A stretch of 63,521 nucleotides of DNA, counting the filler, from Methanobacteriota archaeon (GTDB taxonomy: Archaea; JACRDV01): NCBI GenBank assembly GCA_024860865.1. It is 10 parts of 10 records of this genome, joined end to end, with 100 filler letters (N's around TTAATTAATTAA, not from the genome) between each part and the next. Parts side by side here need not be neighbours in the genome. Positions count along the whole stretch, not along the records: positions 23,797 to 29,360 come from JACRDV010000012.1; 9 more parts are not named here. One strand, given 5' to 3'. The notes under the pieces were generated by a model. The model had not been told where the DNA came from and searched no databases. It saw nothing but the letters and a program-made list of their open reading frames with translations. Positions 3,973-33,296 of the stretch are shown piece after piece. Each line of letters opens with the position of its first letter. Positions within the stretch are counted from its first letter, which is position 1. The position numbers and the translations under genes are program-made.

Positions 3973-4072
3973 NNNNNNNNNNNNNNNNNNNNNNNNNNNN
4001 NNNNNNNNNNNNNNNNTTAATTAATTAANNNNNNNNNNNNNNNNNNNNNNNNNNNNNNNNNNNNNNNNNNNN
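3973..4072. other. Artificial contig spacer (N-TTAATTAATTAA-N); others at 11729-11828, 16339-16438, 23697-23796, 29361-29460, 36938-37037, 44862-44961, 50479-50578, 59021-59120
   Basis: Nine identical 100-bp N runs with a six-frame stop linker; genes are cut at them. Confidence 0.99.
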
Positions 4073-23600: not shown

Positions 23601-23849
23601 AAGACTGAGCATTTTAGAGACCAGTTGTTGGTGTGGAAAGAATGAATTGTTTGATTTGACGGAAGAACAAACCCTTTTGGAAATAAGTATTAGCAGNNNN
23701 NNNNNNNNNNNNNNNNNNNNNNNNNNNNNNNNNNNNNNNNTTAATTAATTAANNNNNNNNNNNNNNNNNNNNNNNNNNNNNNNNNNNNNNNNNNNNAATT
23801 TCAACTTGCTTTTGTTAGTCAAAATAAATTGTATTAAATAGGTTAAAAT

Positions 23850-26084
23850 ATGGCTGAATATATTACTCACCCGCTAATCAAACCAAATACAATTGAAGCT
23901 CGACCGTACCAACAAAGTATGCTAGCTACAGCCATCTCAAAAAATACCCTTTGTGTGCTCCCAACAGCTTTAGGTAAGACTGCACTATCTCTCATGTTGG
24001 CAGCACATCGATTACAAAAATTTCCAGAATTTAAAATTATCTTTATGGCTCCAACAAAACCGCTAGTTGAGCAGCATTTTTCATTCTTTAATAAAGCATT
24101 AAAAATTGAACCTGAAGGGATGGCTGTTTTTACGGGCGAAATACAACCTGAACATAGATTGCAGTTATGGGAAAAAATAAAGATTGGATTTGCTACACCC
24201 CAGTGTGTAGAAAATGATTTAGTTTCTTCAAGGCTTAATTTGAAAAATGTTGGTTTGGTTATTTTTGATGAGGCTCATCGCTGCATTGGCGACTATTCTT
24301 ACAAATTTATTGCTGACCAGTACATCAAGAATGCAACTAATCCATTGATCCTAGGGCTGACGGCGTCGCCAGGCGGTGATGAAGATAGAATAAAAGAAGT
24401 TTGCCAGAATCTACATATCGAAGCCGTTGAGATCAGGAAAGAAAATGATCCTGATGTAAGGCCTTATGTTCAAAAAATTGATGCTGATTGGAGATATGTT
24501 GCTCTTCCAGAGGATTTTAAGAAATTACAACTCTGTTTAAGAAGTTCTCTTGAAAGAAGGCTCTCAACTTTACGCGAACTCGGTTATTGGAGGAATGACC
24601 AGGCAACGAAGAAAGGATTGCTAGAACTTAGAGAGAGACTTCAAGGGATTCTAAGTAAAGAACTCCAACCACCAAGAGAAGTTTTTATTGGAATTTTGAT
24701 GGGCAACATCGCTTTTAAAGCTTTACATGCACTTGAATTGTTAGAGACGCAAGGAACAACTGCTCTTTCAAAATATTTTGAGAGACTAATCAACCAAAAA
24801 TCAAAAGGAGCGAAAACTTTCTTAAATGATAATGAAGTTGTTGAAGCCAAAATACTTTTGCGAAAACTACTGGCTGAAAATATAGAACATCCAAAGATCC
24901 AAAAGTCCATTGAAATAATCCAAAACCAATTAAACGATAATCCCAATTCTAAGATAATTTTGTTCACTCACTTTAGAGATACTGCTGAAAAAATGGTTAA
25001 CTTGCTATCAAAAATAGATGGGATAAGACCGGTTAGATTTGTAGGTCAAAGTGATAAACTCAACGATCCGGGCTTATCGCAAAAAGAACAAATTGAAATA
25101 CTCGAGCGCTTTCGGTCTGGAAACTATAATGTTCTTGTAGCTAGTCAGGTGGCAGAGGAGGGTCTCAACATACCATCAGTTGATTTGGTGGTTTTTTACG
25201 AACCAGTTCCAAGTGAAATTAGAACAATTCAAAGGCGAGGAAGGACAGGCAGACTTCGCCCCGGGAAAGCAGTTGTTTTAATAGCTAAGGGGACTCGCGA
25301 TGAAGCTTATTATTGGAGAAGTTTTTATAAAGAACAAAAAATGAGAAAGATACTCAATTATTTGCCAACTGAACTAAAACCTCAACCGGAGCAAATGGCT
25401 ATTACTGAATTTGCTGAGAGAAACCAAAAAATTACGATCTATGTTGATTCAAGAGAGCTTGCGTCTGGGATTGGCAGAGAGTTGTTGGAGTACAACATAA
25501 ACATTCAATCTACTCAGTTAGAAGTGGCAGATTACTTGCTGTCTAATAGAATTGGTGTTGAGAGAAAAACAGTTGAAGACTTCTTACAATCATTAATTGA
25601 TGGGCGCTTATTGTCTCAATTAATAGAATTAAAAAGAAACTTTGCAAAGCCAATTTTAATTGTAGAGGGAGAGGACCTTTACTCCCACAGAAACATACAC
25701 CCAAATGCAATACGCGGAGTAATAGCAAGTATTGCAGTAGACCTTGGAATGCCAATGATTTGGACAAAAGATAGGCAAGAAACAGCTGCATTTCTATTTT
25801 CAATAGCTAAGAGAGAGCAAGAAGAGCAAAAAGTTGAAATTAGATTAAGAGGAGAAAAAAAGGCTATGACATTAGCTGAACAACAGCAATTTATAGTAGA
25901 AGGGTTACCAGGGATTTCAGCTGAGCTAGCCAAGCGCTTGCTTGAGAAGTTTGAAACAATTCGAAAAATAGTTAATGCTTCCCAAGAGGAGCTCAAAGAA
26001 GTCAAAGGAATAGGAGAAAGCAGGGCAAAAGAAATAGAAACAATGGTTACATCTAAGTATCAATCGGAAGAAAATGAGAATTAA
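23850..26084 (+). CDS. hef: Hef helicase-nuclease (SF2 helicase + ERCC4 + HhH)
   Basis: PTALGKT, DEAH, LTASP, QRRGRTGR; VDSRE, ERKT; HhH. Confidence 0.95.
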   Translation: MAEYITHPLIKPNTIEARPYQQSMLATAISKNTLCVLPTALGKTALSLMLAAHRLQKFPEFKIIFMAPTKPLVEQHFSFFNKALKIEPEGMAVFTGEIQPEHRLQLWEKIKIGFATPQCVENDLVSSRLNLKNVGLVIFDEAHRCIGDYSYKFIADQYIKNATNPLILGLTASPGGDEDRIKEVCQNLHIEAVEIRKENDPDVRPYVQKIDADWRYVALPEDFKKLQLCLRSSLERRLSTLRELGYWRNDQATKKGLLELRERLQGILSKELQPPREVFIGILMGNIAFKALHALELLETQGTTALSKYFERLINQKSKGAKTFLNDNEVVEAKILLRKLLAENIEHPKIQKSIEIIQNQLNDNPNSKIILFTHFRDTAEKMVNLLSKIDGIRPVRFVGQSDKLNDPGLSQKEQIEILERFRSGNYNVLVASQVAEEGLNIPSVDLVVFYEPVPSEIRTIQRRGRTGRLRPGKAVVLIAKGTRDEAYYWRSFYKEQKMRKILNYLPTELKPQPEQMAITEFAERNQKITIYVDSRELASGIGRELLEYNINIQSTQLEVADYLLSNRIGVERKTVEDFLQSLIDGRLLSQLIELKRNFAKPILIVEGEDLYSHRNIHPNAIRGVIASIAVDLGMPMIWTKDRQETAAFLFSIAKREQEEQKVEIRLRGEKKAMTLAEQQQFIVEGLPGISAELAKRLLEKFETIRKIVNASQEELKEVKGIGESRAKEIETMVTSKYQSEENEN

Positions 26085-26429
26085 TTGGTAATTTCTATGG
26101 AGAAGGCAGCACAAGACATCAAAAAGGCAGCTGCTGATATTAAACAAGCAGCAACTGAACTGCTTGATGGGTTTAAAAAAACAGTATCCAATACGCCGCA
26201 ATTTACTCTATATGCAACAATCGATTTTGAATATAGCCGTGAGAATGATATCCATCACGTTTTAATTACTTTTGACGGTTGCAATGGAGAAGAATTGTCT
26301 TTTCTTGCATCAAAGCTATTGCAATATTCGCCTGGCAAAGTTGATTATTGGGAGGTTTTTATTGAATATTTTGACCCAAAAACTGAGGAATGGAAAGAAT
26401 ATAGGTTTGAAGAAGCTGAAGAAGAATAA
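26085..26429 (+). CDS. Hypothetical protein
   Basis: Abuts hef; N-terminal KAAQDIK/KAAADIK heptads. Confidence 0.6.
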   Translation: MVISMEKAAQDIKKAAADIKQAATELLDGFKKTVSNTPQFTLYATIDFEYSRENDIHHVLITFDGCNGEELSFLASKLLQYSPGKVDYWEVFIEYFDPKTEEWKEYRFEEAEEE

Positions 26430-26789
26430 TTACTTGAATTCTTGTACTCTTCTTAATACTTGAAGCAATAAATCCATGTTTTTTAATATCTCAGCAATTG
26501 CTTCGCTCTCGCGCTCTATCTTAAGTTGATTTGCTAACTCTCTAAGTTTTTCAGACAACACGCTTTCAAGCAGCTCAAGATCAACTTTTTCTGGGGCAGG
26601 TATTTTTGGACTTGGTGCAACTTCAGGCTTTGGTTTCTCTTCAATTGTAACTTTCTTACGGCAAGAAGGGCAGATTATTTCGCCTTGATATTCAAAAAGT
26701 GGGCTTCGACACTCCTTGCAATGATGCGCTAGCATCCGCCCGCCGGAGTACAATATTTCAACCATTTTCTCTAAATTTTGCTTTTCCAT
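26430..26789 (-). CDS. Zn-ribbon protein, UPF0148 / autoantigen-p27 family
   Basis: GGRMLAHHCKECRSPLF...ICPSC. Confidence 0.85.
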   Translation of the reverse strand: MEKQNLEKMVEILYSGGRMLAHHCKECRSPLFEYQGEIICPSCRKKVTIEEKPKPEVAPSPKIPAPEKVDLELLESVLSEKLRELANQLKIERESEAIAEILKNMDLLLQVLRRVQEFK

Positions 26790-26971
26790 CGTCTAACCAA
26801 AAATTTTGGAATCGTACCTTGTATAATGAGTCCCATTCTAAAGAATATAACTACATCATAATTTATTTAATAATTCCCGCACCAGAACAAGTGGGGGTTA
26901 CCGAAAGTATTAAACAATTCATCCATCAACTAAAAGCAGACAGTATTCTTGGCTTTAAATCAGGTGGTTCA

Positions 26972-27244
26972 ATGCAGAAAATAAGCCCTAATGAAAAACT
27001 TAAACAAGTTGCTGAGGTTCTAGTTCAAATTGTCGAGGATACCTCAGTCCCCAGGAATATACGCAGGGCAGCAACGGAGGCACGAGATATACTTCTAAAA
27101 GAAGACCAATCGCCTGCCCTCAGGGCAAGCACGGTTATTACTATACTTGACGATATGGCTAACGACCCAAATATTCCAGTGCATGCGCGCACATTGGTCT
27201 GGAATGTAGCTAGTGAATTAGAGCCCATAGCGGTTGAAAAATGA
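26972..27244 (+). CDS. UPF0147 family protein
   Basis: DTSVPRNIRRAA, NDPNIPVHART; AGGTGG RBS. Confidence 0.9.
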   Translation: MQKISPNEKLKQVAEVLVQIVEDTSVPRNIRRAATEARDILLKEDQSPALRASTVITILDDMANDPNIPVHARTLVWNVASELEPIAVEK

Positions 27245-27371
27245 CTTTTTTCGCTTTATTTTGCTTAATAAACAAAATTTAATAATTTCGTTATTTTATT
27301 ATATTATGTATAGTTTAAATAGTTATTTTTTAATACTAAACTTAATATTCCTGATCCGTGGAGTTGTTCAG

Positions 27372-27959
27372 TTGCCTAACCACACAAAATTGTTTGGCCA
27401 ACAAATAACTGAAAAAATTCTGGCCATCACAAAATTAGTCGGAATTACTTCAGACAGAGAGCTTCACAAAATTTTCCAGACTATTTTTGGAAAAGTAAGC
27501 ATCGAGACTTTTAAAAACCACATTGCAGAGGCCATTCAAACAAAAGATTTGATTGATGTGCCAAAGGATGTTTTAAAAAATATCCCATTTAAATCCAAAA
27601 GGTTCCTTTTGCTCGGACCTTCTGAAAGTGCTCCTAGCGATAAAGAGCTTTGGAAAAGTATTACAACACTTGGAATTACATATAGAGATCCTCTTGAATT
27701 TGTTGGTTGGGAAAAGTTAGCTGCTAAAAAGTGGCTTGCGCTAGAGCAGAAAATTAATGAGTTGAAGTCTCAATTACAAGGTGAATTAAGCCCTAAGTCA
27801 AAGCAAGCTATTGAAATAAAATATTTTGAATTAACTGTAGAATATCATCAACTTTCAAATTGGTTCTATGGAAAAATTGAAAACAATTCTAGAAAAGATT
27901 TGCTAAATATTTTAGAGACTTTAAAAGAACATTTTGATTCTCCTAAGTATATTATTTAG
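27372..27959 (+). CDS. Orphan protein, possible N-terminal wHTH plus C-terminal coiled coil
   Basis: GTGGAG RBS then TTG; helical pattern; no firm family. Confidence 0.6.
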   Translation: MPNHTKLFGQQITEKILAITKLVGITSDRELHKIFQTIFGKVSIETFKNHIAEAIQTKDLIDVPKDVLKNIPFKSKRFLLLGPSESAPSDKELWKSITTLGITYRDPLEFVGWEKLAAKKWLALEQKINELKSQLQGELSPKSKQAIEIKYFELTVEYHQLSNWFYGKIENNSRKDLLNILETLKEHFDSPKYII

Positions 27960-27967
27960 GTGGAATT

Positions 27968-28795
27968 TTGGTTTTTTCTGTTATGCTTGGATCTATCGGA
28001 ATCTCTGCTCTTGATCGAATTGGTGCTCTCGATGCCTTCCAAAGAATTTCAGATGCTACATTGGTTGGTTTTTTAAATGAAATCTCTGAAAAATATCCTA
28101 ACCTTGCTGAAAGATTACGGCCTAGAGCATGGGAAGAAAACAACTTGCGGGCTGAATTCTCAAAGGATGAGTTGATATTTGACGAGGCTGAACGGGCCCT
28201 GAAGACAAAATTTAAGCTTGAATTGCCTGAACGGCTGCTTGAGACATGGAGTGAAAAATATGAGTTCAAACCCGTCATTAAGGTTGAGACCCATTTGAGG
28301 CTTCAAACGGGCTTAATTGAAGTTTACTTGCCTATAAAATATAACATCATTATTGAGAGAATTGGGTATATGTTAGCGCATTATTTAAAAAATGACCCAT
28401 TAGAATTTCGTAGGGTTCGATTTGATGAAACGCATTTAGATGGTTGGATTAACTGGGTAATGTTTAAAGAGCTAAGAAGCGCTAGATTTAAAGAGGTGCA
28501 AAAGGGAAATTTAAGGAATGTATATTTTAATGGATTTCAGTTAACTGAGGACCCGGACTATAAAGCATATAGAGAAAATAATTTCGGTCGGCTTCATGCT
28601 ATTAGTTTTTTAGCTGAGACTTCTTTGGATAAAACTGTTGCAATTTCAATCAGCGGAGACAAGGGCAAAATCACGGTATTTACTGAAGATTTATCAGATG
28701 TTGAGCACGCAGTAGATCGAGCAGAAGAAATTCTAGCAATAAAAAATAAGAGAGAGAACAAGTTCAACTTCATTAAAAAATTATTTTTTAAATAA
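27968..28795 (+). CDS. Orphan alpha/beta protein with C-terminal amphipathic tail
   Basis: AGGTGG RBS; coupled to previous gene; ends FNFIKKLFFK. Confidence 0.7.
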   Translation: MVFSVMLGSIGISALDRIGALDAFQRISDATLVGFLNEISEKYPNLAERLRPRAWEENNLRAEFSKDELIFDEAERALKTKFKLELPERLLETWSEKYEFKPVIKVETHLRLQTGLIEVYLPIKYNIIIERIGYMLAHYLKNDPLEFRRVRFDETHLDGWINWVMFKELRSARFKEVQKGNLRNVYFNGFQLTEDPDYKAYRENNFGRLHAISFLAETSLDKTVAISISGDKGKITVFTEDLSDVEHAVDRAEEILAIKNKRENKFNFIKKLFFK

Positions 28796-28875
28796 AATGC
28801 TTGCAAATACTCTCAGTCACCTTTTCCCTGCTGTTCGATCATCTAGGTCTAAATAAATTTCAAAAATTTTTTAGT

Positions 28876-29112
28876 TCACTTTTCAAAAATTGGCTCAACA
28901 ACTTCATACGCTCGAAGTTTTCCCCTCGTTATTTTTTTCGAGAGTTCTTGGAGAAAACTCTCTCCTAAGTCATCATTCGAAACAACTAAAACGCTCTTTT
29001 GCAAGCGCTCGATTTCTAACCCAATATTCATTGCTCTTTGAATTGCTCGAAAAATTCGTGCTCGCTCTGCCCCGCTTTTACTGTCATATAAAATTAGTAT
29101 TTTTGTTCTCAA
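28876..29112 (-). CDS. Stand-alone Cas2/VapD-fold protein
   Basis: ILILYD...R.RIFR...ERLQKSVL pattern; 78 aa; GGGTGA RBS. Confidence 0.6.
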   Translation of the reverse strand: MRTKILILYDSKSGAERARIFRAIQRAMNIGLEIERLQKSVLVVSNDDLGESFLQELSKKITRGKLRAYEVVEPIFEK

Positions 29113-29118
29113 TTCATC

Positions 29119-29358
29119 ATCACCCGTAACTAAAGTTATGGGCCAACTATGTTCGTTTAAACTGATAATCTTTTTCAGTATATTAGATTAAACGTAACTA
29201 TAGTTACGCTTGGATCCAACCCCATAATTTCATGTGGAATCCAAATAATTTCGGATATTTTCCAATAGAAACATAACTAAAGTTACACTAAAAACAAGTA
29301 AAAACCATCATTGCACAGGAAATATAGGGGTGCGCACATAACTAAAGTTACGCTAAAA
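29119..29358. repeat. Four palindromic repeats with core TAACT(A/T)AAGTTA-type sequence, spaced 68, 79 and 65 bp
   Basis: Cores at 29127 (TAACTAAAGTTA), 29195 (TAACTATAGTTA), 29274 and 29339; copies 3 and 4 share 22 of 23 bp; array reaches contig end. Confidence 0.8.
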
Positions 29359-29460
29359 TGNNNNNNNNNNNNNNNNNNNNNNNNNNNNNNNNNNNNNNNN
29401 NNNNTTAATTAATTAANNNNNNNNNNNNNNNNNNNNNNNNNNNNNNNNNNNNNNNNNNNN

Positions 29461-29595: not shown

Positions 29596-31980
29596 TTATA
29601 TTACCTCGGGCATGGTTAACAAAGTAGTTCTTGTCGGTTCATCAAAGTCTTTGTTGCGATCAAGTTTGTAAAGATATCCGCTTACAGCGCTTTCAAGAGC
29701 TTCTTCATGGGTTATGAGCAAAATTTGGTTAACTAGTTTAGGCAAGTGATCACGTAATGTTGTAGCGAGATCTTCTATTGCATTTATATCAAGATTATGA
29801 GTAGGTTCATCGAGAACTAACCAACTTAAATTTTGGGCGAGTACAAGTGCAAAAGCAATTCGTAAAGCCAAGCAAGCTGTCGCGCGTTCTCCTCCGCTTG
29901 CACTTCCTTCAACATTAGTCCATCTGCCATTTCGATCTCTAAGTTGAAGAATGTAATCGCCTTTCCTGCCGCGCCCCTCATTCTCGACTGCTAAGCGCAC
30001 GCTTGTGAAATCTTCATATGGATAAAGGTAATGCCAAATCTCGTCCATGACTTCATTTGTAGCTTCAACGAATCTTTCACGAAGGGCAGTCTGAGTGCAT
30101 TCCAATGCTTTCTGGATCACTAATAGCGAGTCAATGGAAGCCGCAAGTTGATTGGTTTCTAGTCTATATCTTTCTAATGTGCTCTTTAATCCAAGTGATC
30201 TTTTCAATAGCTCTTTTTTCGCAGTTAATAATTTTTCCATTGAATTTACTTCTGTTTTAAGTTGTTGCTCCAACTCAATTAGTTTTCTAAATTGCATTTG
30301 AATTTTCGAGAAAGCCACTTCATCAAATTCAATTTGACTAATCTGTTCTAAAGTCTTCTCTAATTCTGATTTCCTATCCTTGAGTTTTAATTTTAATTTT
30401 AGAAAATTTTCAATATGGGTTAAGTTTTGTATCTCTTTTTGTTTAGATTCAATTGAGTTTTCAACTTTTTCTATTTCTTGTTCGATCTTATCGGTCTCAT
30501 TAAGCTTTTGAGCTTTCAGGACTGCTAAACTTGAAAGTTCGTTATTAGCCTTTTGAAGGGATAGTTCAAGTTCAGGTAATTCTGACAATTTTTCTTCAAT
30601 TTTTTCTATTGCTGAGAATTCACTTTGTAAAGCAAAAAGTTGTTCCTTAGCGCCAATAATTTGATTTTTTAGTTCATTAATTTTATACTGTAGCGTTTCA
30701 ATCTGAATTGTTTTTTGCGCAATTAATTTCTCTTTTATCGCGGAAGGGAGCGGAGCATTACAGGTTGGGCATTCAGCTTTGGCTTTCTGAAGGCTAGTTA
30801 CTCCATCTTTAAGCGTTTCAAATAAAGTTCGGTTGCTCTCAAGTTCGCCAATTAATCCTTGTATATTGTCGGTTAGTCTTTCAACTTCTTTAGCTAACTC
30901 TTTACTTGAGCTGTTTTTAAGTTTCTCTCTCAGTTCAACTCTCGCAGCAATTTCTTTTTTAGTTCGAGGTATTTCATTCTCTCCAAAGTACAAAATCTGG
31001 CTTGTAAATTTATTAACATCGGAGGTCAATGATTGTAGCATTTGTCGTTGAATTTTAATTTGTTTTTTCAACTCATCAATCTCAGAAGTTAAACCTACAA
31101 TTTGGTCATTAACATGCTCAAGTGTTAAATCTGGGTCGATTTCGATATTATATGCATTAATCTCTCCGGTTAATTCATCTATTTGATATGATAGAGATCT
31201 GTTCCTTTCTTGAAGAATTTGCAATTGAGTAGCTTGTTGTTTAAGTCGATCAATTTCTTTTTCAAGTTGAATTAGCTTTGGTTCAAGTTCTTCGAGTGCT
31301 TTCATTTTATCTTTTTGCTCGTTCGAGAGCGAGAGCAGTTCTTTTTCAAGTTGAGGGATTTTTAGGATGTTTTCGTCTTTTTCTAGCTCTCGAAGAAGTA
31401 ACTCTCTTGCTACTTTTCTTTCTTGAAGTTGATTGGCAATACCTCCAATGCCTTTTCTAGCTGTTTCAACGCGATCGAGCCTCAGCAACTGGTCGATTTT
31501 ATTTATGCGGTCTCCTTTTGGAATTTCAAGAAAGTAATCGAGCTGATTTTGCTCAGCATAAACTGCCCTGGTAAACAGCTCATATTCCATTCTCAGTAGA
31601 TGTTCAATATACTCAGTAACTTTTTCTGAGTTGGGGCCTTCAAGCAATTGGTTCGTCATTTTCAATCGCAACTCAGAAAGTAATGTTTTATCCCTTGTTA
31701 ACCTTCGTTTTACTGTATATTCTTGGCTATCTGGGGCAATGAAATCAAGTTCGATATCCGCATATTTTTGTTCTTTTGGTTTATTCATTATTATATCGCC
31801 TAATCGAATTTTTCGCTGCTGTAAGTCAGGAAAAGTTCCATAAAGTGCAAAGGTAACAGCATTCATTACTGCTGTTTTTCCCGATCCCATGATCCCTATC
31901 AGAGCATTTGTTCCGGAACTAAACTTAAGTTCAGTTTTCGCATGGCATTTCCAATTTAAAAGCCGTAAACTTGTGATCAA
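29596..31980 (-). CDS. rad50: Rad50 ATPase
   Basis: GIMGSGKT, CPTC zinc hook, ASGGE, LDEPTHNLD, long coiled coils. Confidence 0.93.
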   Translation of the reverse strand: MITSLRLLNWKCHAKTELKFSSGTNALIGIMGSGKTAVMNAVTFALYGTFPDLQQRKIRLGDIIMNKPKEQKYADIELDFIAPDSQEYTVKRRLTRDKTLLSELRLKMTNQLLEGPNSEKVTEYIEHLLRMEYELFTRAVYAEQNQLDYFLEIPKGDRINKIDQLLRLDRVETARKGIGGIANQLQERKVARELLLRELEKDENILKIPQLEKELLSLSNEQKDKMKALEELEPKLIQLEKEIDRLKQQATQLQILQERNRSLSYQIDELTGEINAYNIEIDPDLTLEHVNDQIVGLTSEIDELKKQIKIQRQMLQSLTSDVNKFTSQILYFGENEIPRTKKEIAARVELREKLKNSSSKELAKEVERLTDNIQGLIGELESNRTLFETLKDGVTSLQKAKAECPTCNAPLPSAIKEKLIAQKTIQIETLQYKINELKNQIIGAKEQLFALQSEFSAIEKIEEKLSELPELELSLQKANNELSSLAVLKAQKLNETDKIEQEIEKVENSIESKQKEIQNLTHIENFLKLKLKLKDRKSELEKTLEQISQIEFDEVAFSKIQMQFRKLIELEQQLKTEVNSMEKLLTAKKELLKRSLGLKSTLERYRLETNQLAASIDSLLVIQKALECTQTALRERFVEATNEVMDEIWHYLYPYEDFTSVRLAVENEGRGRKGDYILQLRDRNGRWTNVEGSASGGERATACLALRIAFALVLAQNLSWLVLDEPTHNLDINAIEDLATTLRDHLPKLVNQILLITHEEALESAVSGYLYKLDRNKDFDEPTRTTLLTMPEVI

Positions 31981-33296
31981 GTTTCGACACCATTTATCTG
32001 TTTAATCGAAGTCAGCAGCTGAGAATCTAACCTTTTTTCGAGGTCATTCAGCACTATTTGAAGTGCTTCTTCAGTCTTTCCTTCTGAAAGCAAGGCAAAG
32101 AGTTTTTCAACATCATATATGCCGTTATAACCAAGTTTAGTAAGATTTTCTTTAAGGAGCTCTAAGCCCATTTCTTCAACTGAAAGCCTTCGTTCTCTAA
32201 TCTCTTGCAGGATTTTAATTTTCTCTGAAAGTTCAGGAGCAACAAGTTTCTCTTTATTGACTGAAATTATTGCATGGGATTTATATCCTTCAATCAGTTG
32301 ATGTAAACCAACATCATTTTTTCCAAATCCCTTGGCGAGAGAGCCAGTTAATTTAAGTCTTATAAGAGGAATCTTGCTCTGATTTTCTCTGGGCCTTTGT
32401 AACAATTCTTTAACTTTTAACTCGCAAGTTTTTAAAACTTCATTTGGAGTCGCTTGATTAAAGGATATCGTCTCATGGAAAAAGTCGCGCAATTTGTTGA
32501 GTTTAATAAATTCTATTTTATTTTGTTTATCAATGTCTATGACAAAGAAACCTTTTGATATTTTAGCTTCTTGTTCAGTTAATTGTGTTCTTAAAGTACC
32601 TCCTGGAAAAACTATTGGAGTGCCAGTTTTTGGGTGTTTCTCTTTAATAGGGAGATGGATATGTCCACAAACTATTAAATCAAAACCTGTTGGCAAGTCT
32701 TCAAGTGCCAGAGTAGGTTCTTCCTCGTTGGAATATATATACGGTTGAATTGATTGATGTAGCAGAAGGATATTAATCGCATTTTCAATCGGCTTTGGAC
32801 TCCATGTTTGGAGTACAATTTTTGCATAGTGTTCTGGGACATTGCTCATTCCATGAAGTGCAATTTTAGTTCCGTTTAAGCTCAAAAGAATTGAATTACA
32901 ATGAAGATGAGTGAGGAATCCAGCTGATTCAAGTGTTTGAATTGGATTAATAGTATTTTTTATTCGACGTTCATGATTCCCATGTAAAGCAAAGATTGGA
33001 ATTCCAAAAAATGCAAGCTGAGATACTTCATCGAGATTTTTCCTAGATGTGGAAATAATTTTAATAGCATTAGTTTTTTCAACCAATGTCTTACTTAGGA
33101 TTTTCATCGCGCGAATTAGAATTTCTGGAGGGGGTAATCGGCTATCAAAAAGGTCTCCGGTTAGTATTATTAGATCCGATTTTTCTTGGATCGATTTTTC
33201 GATAGCTTCTAATGCCTGTTCAAATGAATCTTCTTGTCTAGGGGTATTCCAACCAAACCCCAAATGAAAATCAGATAAAACAGCAATTCGGACCAT
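31977..33296 (-). CDS. mre11: Mre11 nuclease
   Basis: SDFHLG, GDLFD, HGNHE, GHIH; coupled to rad50. Confidence 0.93.
   Translation of the reverse strand: MVRIAVLSDFHLGFGWNTPRQEDSFEQALEAIEKSIQEKSDLIILTGDLFDSRLPPPEILIRAMKILSKTLVEKTNAIKIISTSRKNLDEVSQLAFFGIPIFALHGNHERRIKNTINPIQTLESAGFLTHLHCNSILLSLNGTKIALHGMSNVPEHYAKIVLQTWSPKPIENAINILLLHQSIQPYIYSNEEEPTLALEDLPTGFDLIVCGHIHLPIKEKHPKTGTPIVFPGGTLRTQLTEQEAKISKGFFVIDIDKQNKIEFIKLNKLRDFFHETISFNQATPNEVLKTCELKVKELLQRPRENQSKIPLIRLKLTGSLAKGFGKNDVGLHQLIEGYKSHAIISVNKEKLVAPELSEKIKILQEIRERRLSVEEMGLELLKENLTKLGYNGIYDVEKLFALLSEGKTEEALQIVLNDLEKRLDSQLLTSIKQINGVET

Follow-up and report, generated by a model that had tools for sequence, protein, structure and literature searches.

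The DNA analysed here (the window) is a stretch of 63,521 bases that consists of ten contigs of 4.0-8.4 kb joined by spacers of the form N44-TTAATTAATTAA-N44, at 3973-4072 and eight further places; because the joints are N spacers, features on the two sides of a joint are not to be read as continuous. The locus occupies the right-hand end of the contig at 23797-29360, with N from 29361. This contig carries seven ORFs, its gene set is archaeal, and its GC content shows no compositional break along its length. The first gene encodes a housekeeping Hef-type helicase/ERCC4 nuclease and is followed directly, with a stop/start junction in common, by a 114-aa acidic ORF (26085-26429, plus strand) that has no family in Pfam, NCBIfam or PADLOC. 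Genes for a zinc-ribbon protein and a UPF0147 protein come after it, and then a 241-aa and a 275-aa ORF, both without any family; a protein search with the 241-aa sequence returned that sequence alone. The last ORF, of 78 aa (28876..29112, minus strand), begins with TTG, is a near-orphan, and is oriented away from a set of palindromic repeats in the DNA that separates it from the contig end. On the next contig, a Rad50-like SMC ATPase gene (794 aa) and a Mre11-like phosphoesterase gene (439 aa) overlap by 4 nt at 29596-33296 (minus strand), the usual archaeal repair operon.

Strain variation shows that the 78-aa ORF is a real gene. The variants X2-X4 carry seven substitutions within it, and all seven are synonymous third-position changes, which identifies the frame as protein-coding. 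Relatives of its product, P0001, are scarce. A word-indexed search of 5.8 billion proteins found a single one, P0002 (76 aa, 76% identity), and a HMMER pass over 1.84 billion representatives returned the same protein as the single relative. A profile search with the P0001/P0002 alignment gave no confirmed relative in metagenome, genome or viral contigs, where the peptide pattern matched 586, 39 and 33 stretches, respectively, and none was confirmed. Other searches returned unnamed clusters in the ESM Atlas (best scores 0.87 and 0.84), a chance match alone among PDB sequences (E 1.7), and nothing below E 0.01 in PHROGs.

Four copies of a palindrome, for which no strand is assigned, lie upstream of this gene. 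Copy 1 (29126..29139, GTAACTAAAGTTAT) is nearest to the start codon; copy 2 (29194..29207, GTAACTATAGTTAC) forms a perfect 16-nt palindrome together with its flanking C and G; copy 3 (29273..29286) and copy 4 (29338..29351, 9 nt before the contig end) both read ATAACTAAAGTTAC. In all 63,521 bases, RTAACTAWAGTTAY with at most one mismatch matches at 29126, 29194, 29273 and 29338 only, a scan that bears out the four 12-bp palindromic cores that an earlier, sequence-only reading of this DNA had placed at 29127, 29195, 29274 and 29339. These amount to 8 strand-matches against 0.20 expected, a number reached by none of 100 shuffles, and the four occurrences of TAACTNNAGTTA in the window all belong to this site cluster. 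The copies are spaced by 68, 79 and 65 bp, whether measured from start to start or from centre to centre, and the segments between them are unrelated to one another; on both points the sequence-only reading was right. The whole region (29113-29360, 248 nt) is non-coding, with no stop-to-stop frame above 41 aa apart from the gene's own and its antisense, and it is AT-rich, at 33% GC.

What the copies have in common is limited to a palindromic core of 14-16 nt. Across all six copy pairs, the 14-nt cores are identical at 12-14 of 14 positions, whereas the 20-nt flanks are near random, with 5-9 of 20 bases identical on the left and 5-6 of 20 on the right. The right flank of copies 3 and 4 is the exception, with six of the nine available bases identical; these two copies share 22 of 23 nt (ACATAACTAAAGTTAC(A/G)CTAAAA), and copy 2 is 74% identical to the same 23-mer, in keeping with the earlier description of copies 3 and 4 as the closest pair and of similarity that falls off towards the gene. 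The consensus of the sites is RTAACT-AW-AGTTAY, in which the half-sites (C)RTAACT and AGTTAY(G) surround a free central dinucleotide, and the centre varies both among the copies and between strains. Conserved half-sites around a free and variable centre are the pattern expected of half-site contacts by a dimer, and conservation of the core alone argues for selection on the dyad itself, rather than on a full repeat or the neutral decay of one.

The position of copy 1 may relate the palindromes to the expression of the 78-aa gene. A Shine-Dalgarno-like GGTGAT (29119..29124, minus strand), whose function as a ribosome-binding site would fit its place 6 nt before the TTG start, directly abuts copy 1, and GGAGG/GGTG elements akin to it precede other long ORFs in the window. 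As had been noted before, 14 nt separate the start codon from the 12-bp core of copy 1, with GGTGAT in between. Upstream of copy 1 by 16 nt, in the orientation of the gene, is a TATA-like TTTAAAC (29156..29162, minus strand), a candidate promoter element that reads TTTAAAT in X2 (29155 G>A). Since copy 1 abuts the ribosome-binding site, the region with the repeats must contain the promoter of the gene.

We therefore considered whether the four palindromes are operators for a dimeric, sequence-specific DNA-binding protein, located in the promoter of the 78-aa gene. Operators of archaeal repressors can overlap the TATA box or the transcription start, and control regions with several boxes are known, as for Ss-LrpB. 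The cluster described here would resemble such systems in its short dyads with conserved half-sites, in the presence of several copies and in a copy placed where transcription would be expected to begin, while it differs from the usual archaeal operator clusters in its wider spacing, with four sites 65-79 bp apart. Site 1 lies between the TATA-like element and the ribosome-binding site, and if the usual archaeal TATA-to-start distance applies to the TTTAAAC 16 nt upstream of it, transcription would begin inside site 1. A protein bound there could block recruitment of RNA polymerase and so turn the 78-aa gene off. Sites 2 to 4 might serve cooperative binding, or might belong to a divergent promoter past the end of the contig. 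The gene for the binding protein may likewise lie past 29360; a less likely candidate for the binding protein is the 78-aa protein itself. The regulated gene would then encode a βαββαβ protein that is perhaps a very distant member of the Cas2/VapD superfamily, outside any CRISPR locus.

Several of the observations favour operators. There are four sites where 0.2 are expected, none elsewhere in 63.5 kb, and the region that holds them is non-coding; the predicted Shine-Dalgarno-like element and the TATA-like element at the gene, the latter retained in X2 with its last base changed, agree with this reading as well. Against it, the contig encodes no helix-turn-helix, ribbon-helix-helix or other DNA-binding family among its ORFs, and the 65-79 bp spacing is wide for operators and falls among the periods of CRISPR arrays. 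The slight resemblance of the adjoining gene to Cas2, discussed below, would also be a coincidence. Operators were among the explanations offered by the sequence-only reading, and they are the best fit of those, although they are not proven; our own confidence in them is tentative, a little short of even.

Two other ideas about the repeats were tried and dropped. TATA-like elements lie 8-11 nt to the left of copies 2-4, which suggested a cassette of TATA element plus palindrome; this was abandoned because X2 is without 5 nt at the TATA-like element by copy 2 and because such elements are common at 33% GC. A C/D-box small RNA was rejected by eye, as box D or D' is not at the proper distance. 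RNA folding of the repeat region gave z-scores of -3.4 and -4.1 on the two strands, which we set aside, since copies of a palindrome are bound to pair with one another. A literature search for the palindrome motif returned unrelated work on poxviruses and yeast only.

Variation among strains bears on both the sites and their spacing. We aligned contigs from two studies, comprising four public runs, to 28700-29360. In X2, which comes from another study and is ~95% identical, the DNA between the sites is homologous, with point changes, a point in favour of operators. The ten substitutions there comprise one in 56 core bases and nine in 185 other bases; this difference between core and non-core positions is not significant (Fisher p = 0.46), which counts against operators. 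The single core change, A>T at 29133, falls on the central base of copy 1 and turns it into GTAACTATAGTTAT. X2 is also without 4 nt of the GGGTGATGATGAA stretch (29113-29125) that separates the start codon from site 1, and without 5 nt (TATAT region, 29179-29183) between sites 1 and 2, so that its first interval is 63. These differences indicate that the spacing of the sites is not fixed, and the altered spacing is a further point against operators.

The right-hand limit of the repeats is set by the assembly. As the sequence-only reading pointed out, the contig ends right after copy 4. This end, at 29360, may be an effect of low coverage, as the X1 contigs reach no further than 29073, where their depth is ~5, and leave 29074-29360 uncovered. 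The X2 contig (3055 nt) covers 28700-29353 and then continues for ~1.5 kb beyond the end of the window's contig. Thirty nucleotides of this X2 overhang lengthen the similarity of copies 3 and 4 by ~6 bases, with one indel, as judged by eye. The same 30 nt, which are shorter than the distance to any next repeat, have no second occurrence in the window.

Alternatively, the repeats may be CRISPR-like, either as the degenerate far end of an array that lies beyond the contig or as a mini-array of four repeats, next to a stand-alone, highly diverged Cas2. Part of the case for this explanation comes from the 78-aa protein. P0001 itself matched no Pfam model at E up to 10, and P0002, searched against 24,736 Pfam models, matched one only, CRISPR_Cas2 (PF09827, E 0.042), with residues 1-71 on model positions 1-68 of 74 and 14.5 bits against a cut-off of 23.8. 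Among NCBIfam models, P0002 matched TIGR01573 (cas2, E 0.043, 14.1 against a cut-off of 24.5) and one unrelated weak row, and in PADLOC the Cas2 models make up 10 of 12 rows for P0002 and two of three for P0001 (E 0.002-0.04). Cas2 is thus the only family with repeated, full-length, in-register matches in Pfam, NCBIfam and PADLOC, all of them sub-threshold; neither P0001 nor P0002 reaches the curated cut-off of PF09827 or TIGR01573.

Profile comparison with natural Cas2 proteins gave a divided answer. For this we gathered Cas2 ORFs from 18 of 20 loci of Methanobacteria and from 30 of 30 of one bacterial phylum. When the two-sequence alignment of P0001 and P0002 was compared by hhalign with the 30 bacterial Cas2 sequences, it aligned over 62 columns (4-74 on 6-73) with a probability of 51.5 and P 1.5e-4, and its score of 26.3 was reached by none of 300 column shuffles (mean 10.9, maximum 23.9). 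Against the 18 Cas2 sequences of Methanobacteria, only 8-9 columns aligned, with a probability of 2, which counts against a CRISPR-like origin. The bacterial register places ILILYD on YD(I/V), ERLQKSV on RVQ.SVFE and KLRAYEV on the last Cas2 strand. D10, the last residue of ILILYD and of strand 1, thereby coincides with the Cas2 Asp, a candidate metal site, and is kept in P0002. Cas2 (PF09827, TIGR01573) is also similar to P0001 in its length of ~80-95 aa, in its βαββαβ order and in a hydrophobic first strand that ends in Y-D; in the hhalign alignment, G..(E)RLQKSV of P0001 corresponds to G.RVQ.SVFE of Cas2, and its late K-L-R-A-Y strand to S-v-R-y-Y.

Structure prediction is compatible with this likeness and does not single out Cas2. 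The AF2 model of P0001 has strands at 4-9, 33-36, 40-45 and 68-71 and helices at 14-29 and 48-62, a βαββαβ, ferredoxin-like arrangement, at a pLDDT of 75.6 for the best model and 45-51 for the other four. The best fold matches (Foldseek E 0.01, VIA-align Z 7.3) are generic ferredoxin-like folds, in a range that is common by the tool's own scale, and Cas2 ranks only 47th in Foldseek (E 0.045) and 48th in VIA-align (Z 5.4). A BFVD fold search gave uncharacterised ferredoxin-like proteins only, at E 0.016 or worse, and the ferredoxin-like fold is common to many unrelated families. The earlier description of the ORF as Cas2-like thus stands in part: sub-threshold family matches and the hhalign alignment speak for it, and the curated cut-offs and fold ranks do not. 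On these comparisons, the Cas2 likeness appears weak but specific. A distant relationship with the Cas2/VapD superfamily is plausible, perhaps enough so that we lean towards it, while membership of a family is not established. No VapD family matched in Pfam or NCBIfam. VapD and the CRISPR-independent toxins of the Cas2 superfamily nevertheless offer a parallel, as small, stand-alone Cas2-fold genes that are possibly under palindromic operator control; in a VapD-type toxin-antitoxin pair one would look for a partner gene, whereas here the 248 nt upstream contain no frame above 41 aa and the downstream neighbour is convergent.

The repeats themselves lend some support to a CRISPR-like origin. 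Their period of 65-79 bp would suit an array, and so would the 22 of 23 nt shared by copies 3 and 4 with similarity fading towards the gene, the ~6 bases that the X2 overhang adds to it, and a contig that ends right after copy 4. There is also a precedent among archaeal viruses: 'Chiyouvirus' of Bathyarchaeia has a Cas2 homologue and two mini-arrays of four repeats and three spacers (PMC10541130). The two cases are alike in a Cas2-like gene without cas1, in four spaced repeats and in an archaeal setting, and they differ in that the 'Chiyouvirus' repeats are true CRISPR repeats, one set being identical to that of the host, whereas here there is only a 14-16-nt palindrome (PMC10541130). The locus described here further differs from the virus in being chromosomal, with Hef on the same contig, and our searches found no viral relatives of it.

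In most respects, the anatomy of the repeats is not that of a CRISPR array. In place of at least three near-identical repeats of ~23-50 nt, the four copies have in common only the 14-16-nt palindrome, and their period varies by 14 bp. Rfam matched no family on 23797-29360 at E up to 1, CRISPR-DR included, in a collection that holds some repeat families only, and Tandem Repeats Finder detected no CRISPR-type tandem array in the whole window. The same inter-repeat DNA is present in X2, a strain from another study; old CRISPR spacers can be common to different strains. Comparison of the region with GenBank phages gave nothing beyond chance (best E 0.2 over 32 nt), and one 24-nt seed had no match in IMG/VR. 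The statement of the sequence-only reading that the contig has no cas1 or effector held: no Cas family was found in the other ORFs, in searches that covered all seven ORFs with Pfam and four with PADLOC, and in this the locus is unlike those of Cas2, with neither cas1, an effector nor a bona fide array beside the 78-aa gene. Finally, an 'array' whose first copy abuts the ribosome-binding site would have to hold the gene's promoter. With conservation limited to the core, a variable period and the same DNA between the copies in X2, the array proposed by the sequence-only reading is unsupported by the repeat anatomy, and we regard a CRISPR-like origin as unlikely.

A related notion is that the locus represents a CRISPR-independent, lineage-restricted Cas2-like protein with a palindromic repeat array of its own, which would be either a stripped-down or ancestral-looking module or a case of a recruited Cas2 fold. 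We considered it because Cas2 is the only family signal, because the period is CRISPR-like and because further copies may follow beyond 29360. Among the papers listed by literature searches for solo or stand-alone Cas2, there was no archaeal chromosomal case. We consider such a module quite unlikely.

It is also conceivable that the palindromes are recognised by the very protein encoded next to them, the Cas2-like 78-aa product, as an autoregulating dimer or as a DNA-handling factor derived from Cas2. The gene and the sites are adjacent, and the protein has a net positive charge and a first helix rich in arginine (R17, R19, R22 and R26). Canonical Cas2 is a DNA-binding homodimer, although it binds DNA without sequence specificity, and the ferredoxin-like fold is not a usual reader of specific sequences. 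On balance, we find self-recognition very unlikely, and prefer operators for a separate dimeric protein.

The convergent neighbour of the 78-aa gene provides another perspective on the locus. The 275-aa orphan gene (27968..28795, plus strand) encodes a protein with two relatives only, P0003 (97%) and P0004 (65%), and without a family in Pfam, PADLOC or NCBIfam; its C-terminal half is very strongly conserved, and its AF2 model is unusable (pLDDT 42). P0003 is encoded on a 3055-nt contig, which equals the X2 record in length, and P0004 and P0002 are each encoded on a 2998-nt contig of the same source. As P0004 and P0002 agree in contig size and source, the two genes seem to be conserved together, and the tail-to-tail arrangement of the 275-aa and 78-aa genes appears to recur in a relative at greater distance, with 65% and 76% identity for the two proteins. 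The two near-orphan genes may form a functional pair.

Two neighbouring orphans with one or two relatives each would also suit a lineage-specific island, and dyad repeats set apart in non-coding, AT-rich DNA (33% GC) could be origin-recognition-box-like or centromere-like elements, bound by an initiator or partition protein whose gene lies beyond the contig end. The place would then be a replication origin, a partition site or a mobile-element edge. The contig that carries the repeats contains no orc1/cdc6, rep, par or integrase gene, though, and combines an even composition with the housekeeping Hef gene. Viral or phage relatives were likewise not found in our searches, and the repeats of known iteron and centromere arrays usually stand closer together. 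An origin, partition site or mobile-element edge is thus highly improbable in our view, and operators in the promoter of the 78-aa gene continue to be the preferred reading.

The significance of the locus depends on which of its features prove to be functional. If the palindromes are ordinary operators, this is a routine control region of an orphan gene, and its main value is that the clean motif, with four sites, could lead to the regulator and its regulon in a poorly known archaeal lineage. If the Cas2 likeness is true, the 78-aa protein adds a very divergent, stand-alone archaeal branch to the Cas2/VapD superfamily. Should the protein and the repeats work together, the locus would bear on how Cas2 became tied to spaced repeats.

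Pattern scans of DNA for two copies of the site matched at least 119, 46 and 12 stretches. Neither blastn with the contig nor tblastn with the ORF (best E 3.3) revealed homology in any of the 177 loci from these scans, and as far as such comparisons go, the matches are chance or unrelated elements. In four Methanobacteria-type genomes, a conserved pair of ATATAACTATAGTTATAT palindromes lies ~57-62 bp apart around a conserved GGCATCCTCAGC segment (L124:6808-6881, L125:4761-4829, L134:2308-2378 and L136:608-676). These pairs are unrelated to the four-site cluster apart from the 12-mer in common. A 328-aa cysteine-synthase-like gene and, after it, a serine-acetyltransferase-like gene, both named by reading the sequence, directly follow the pair in L125 and L134, and the ATATAACTATAGTTATAT pair is probably the operator pair of a regulator of cysteine metabolism.
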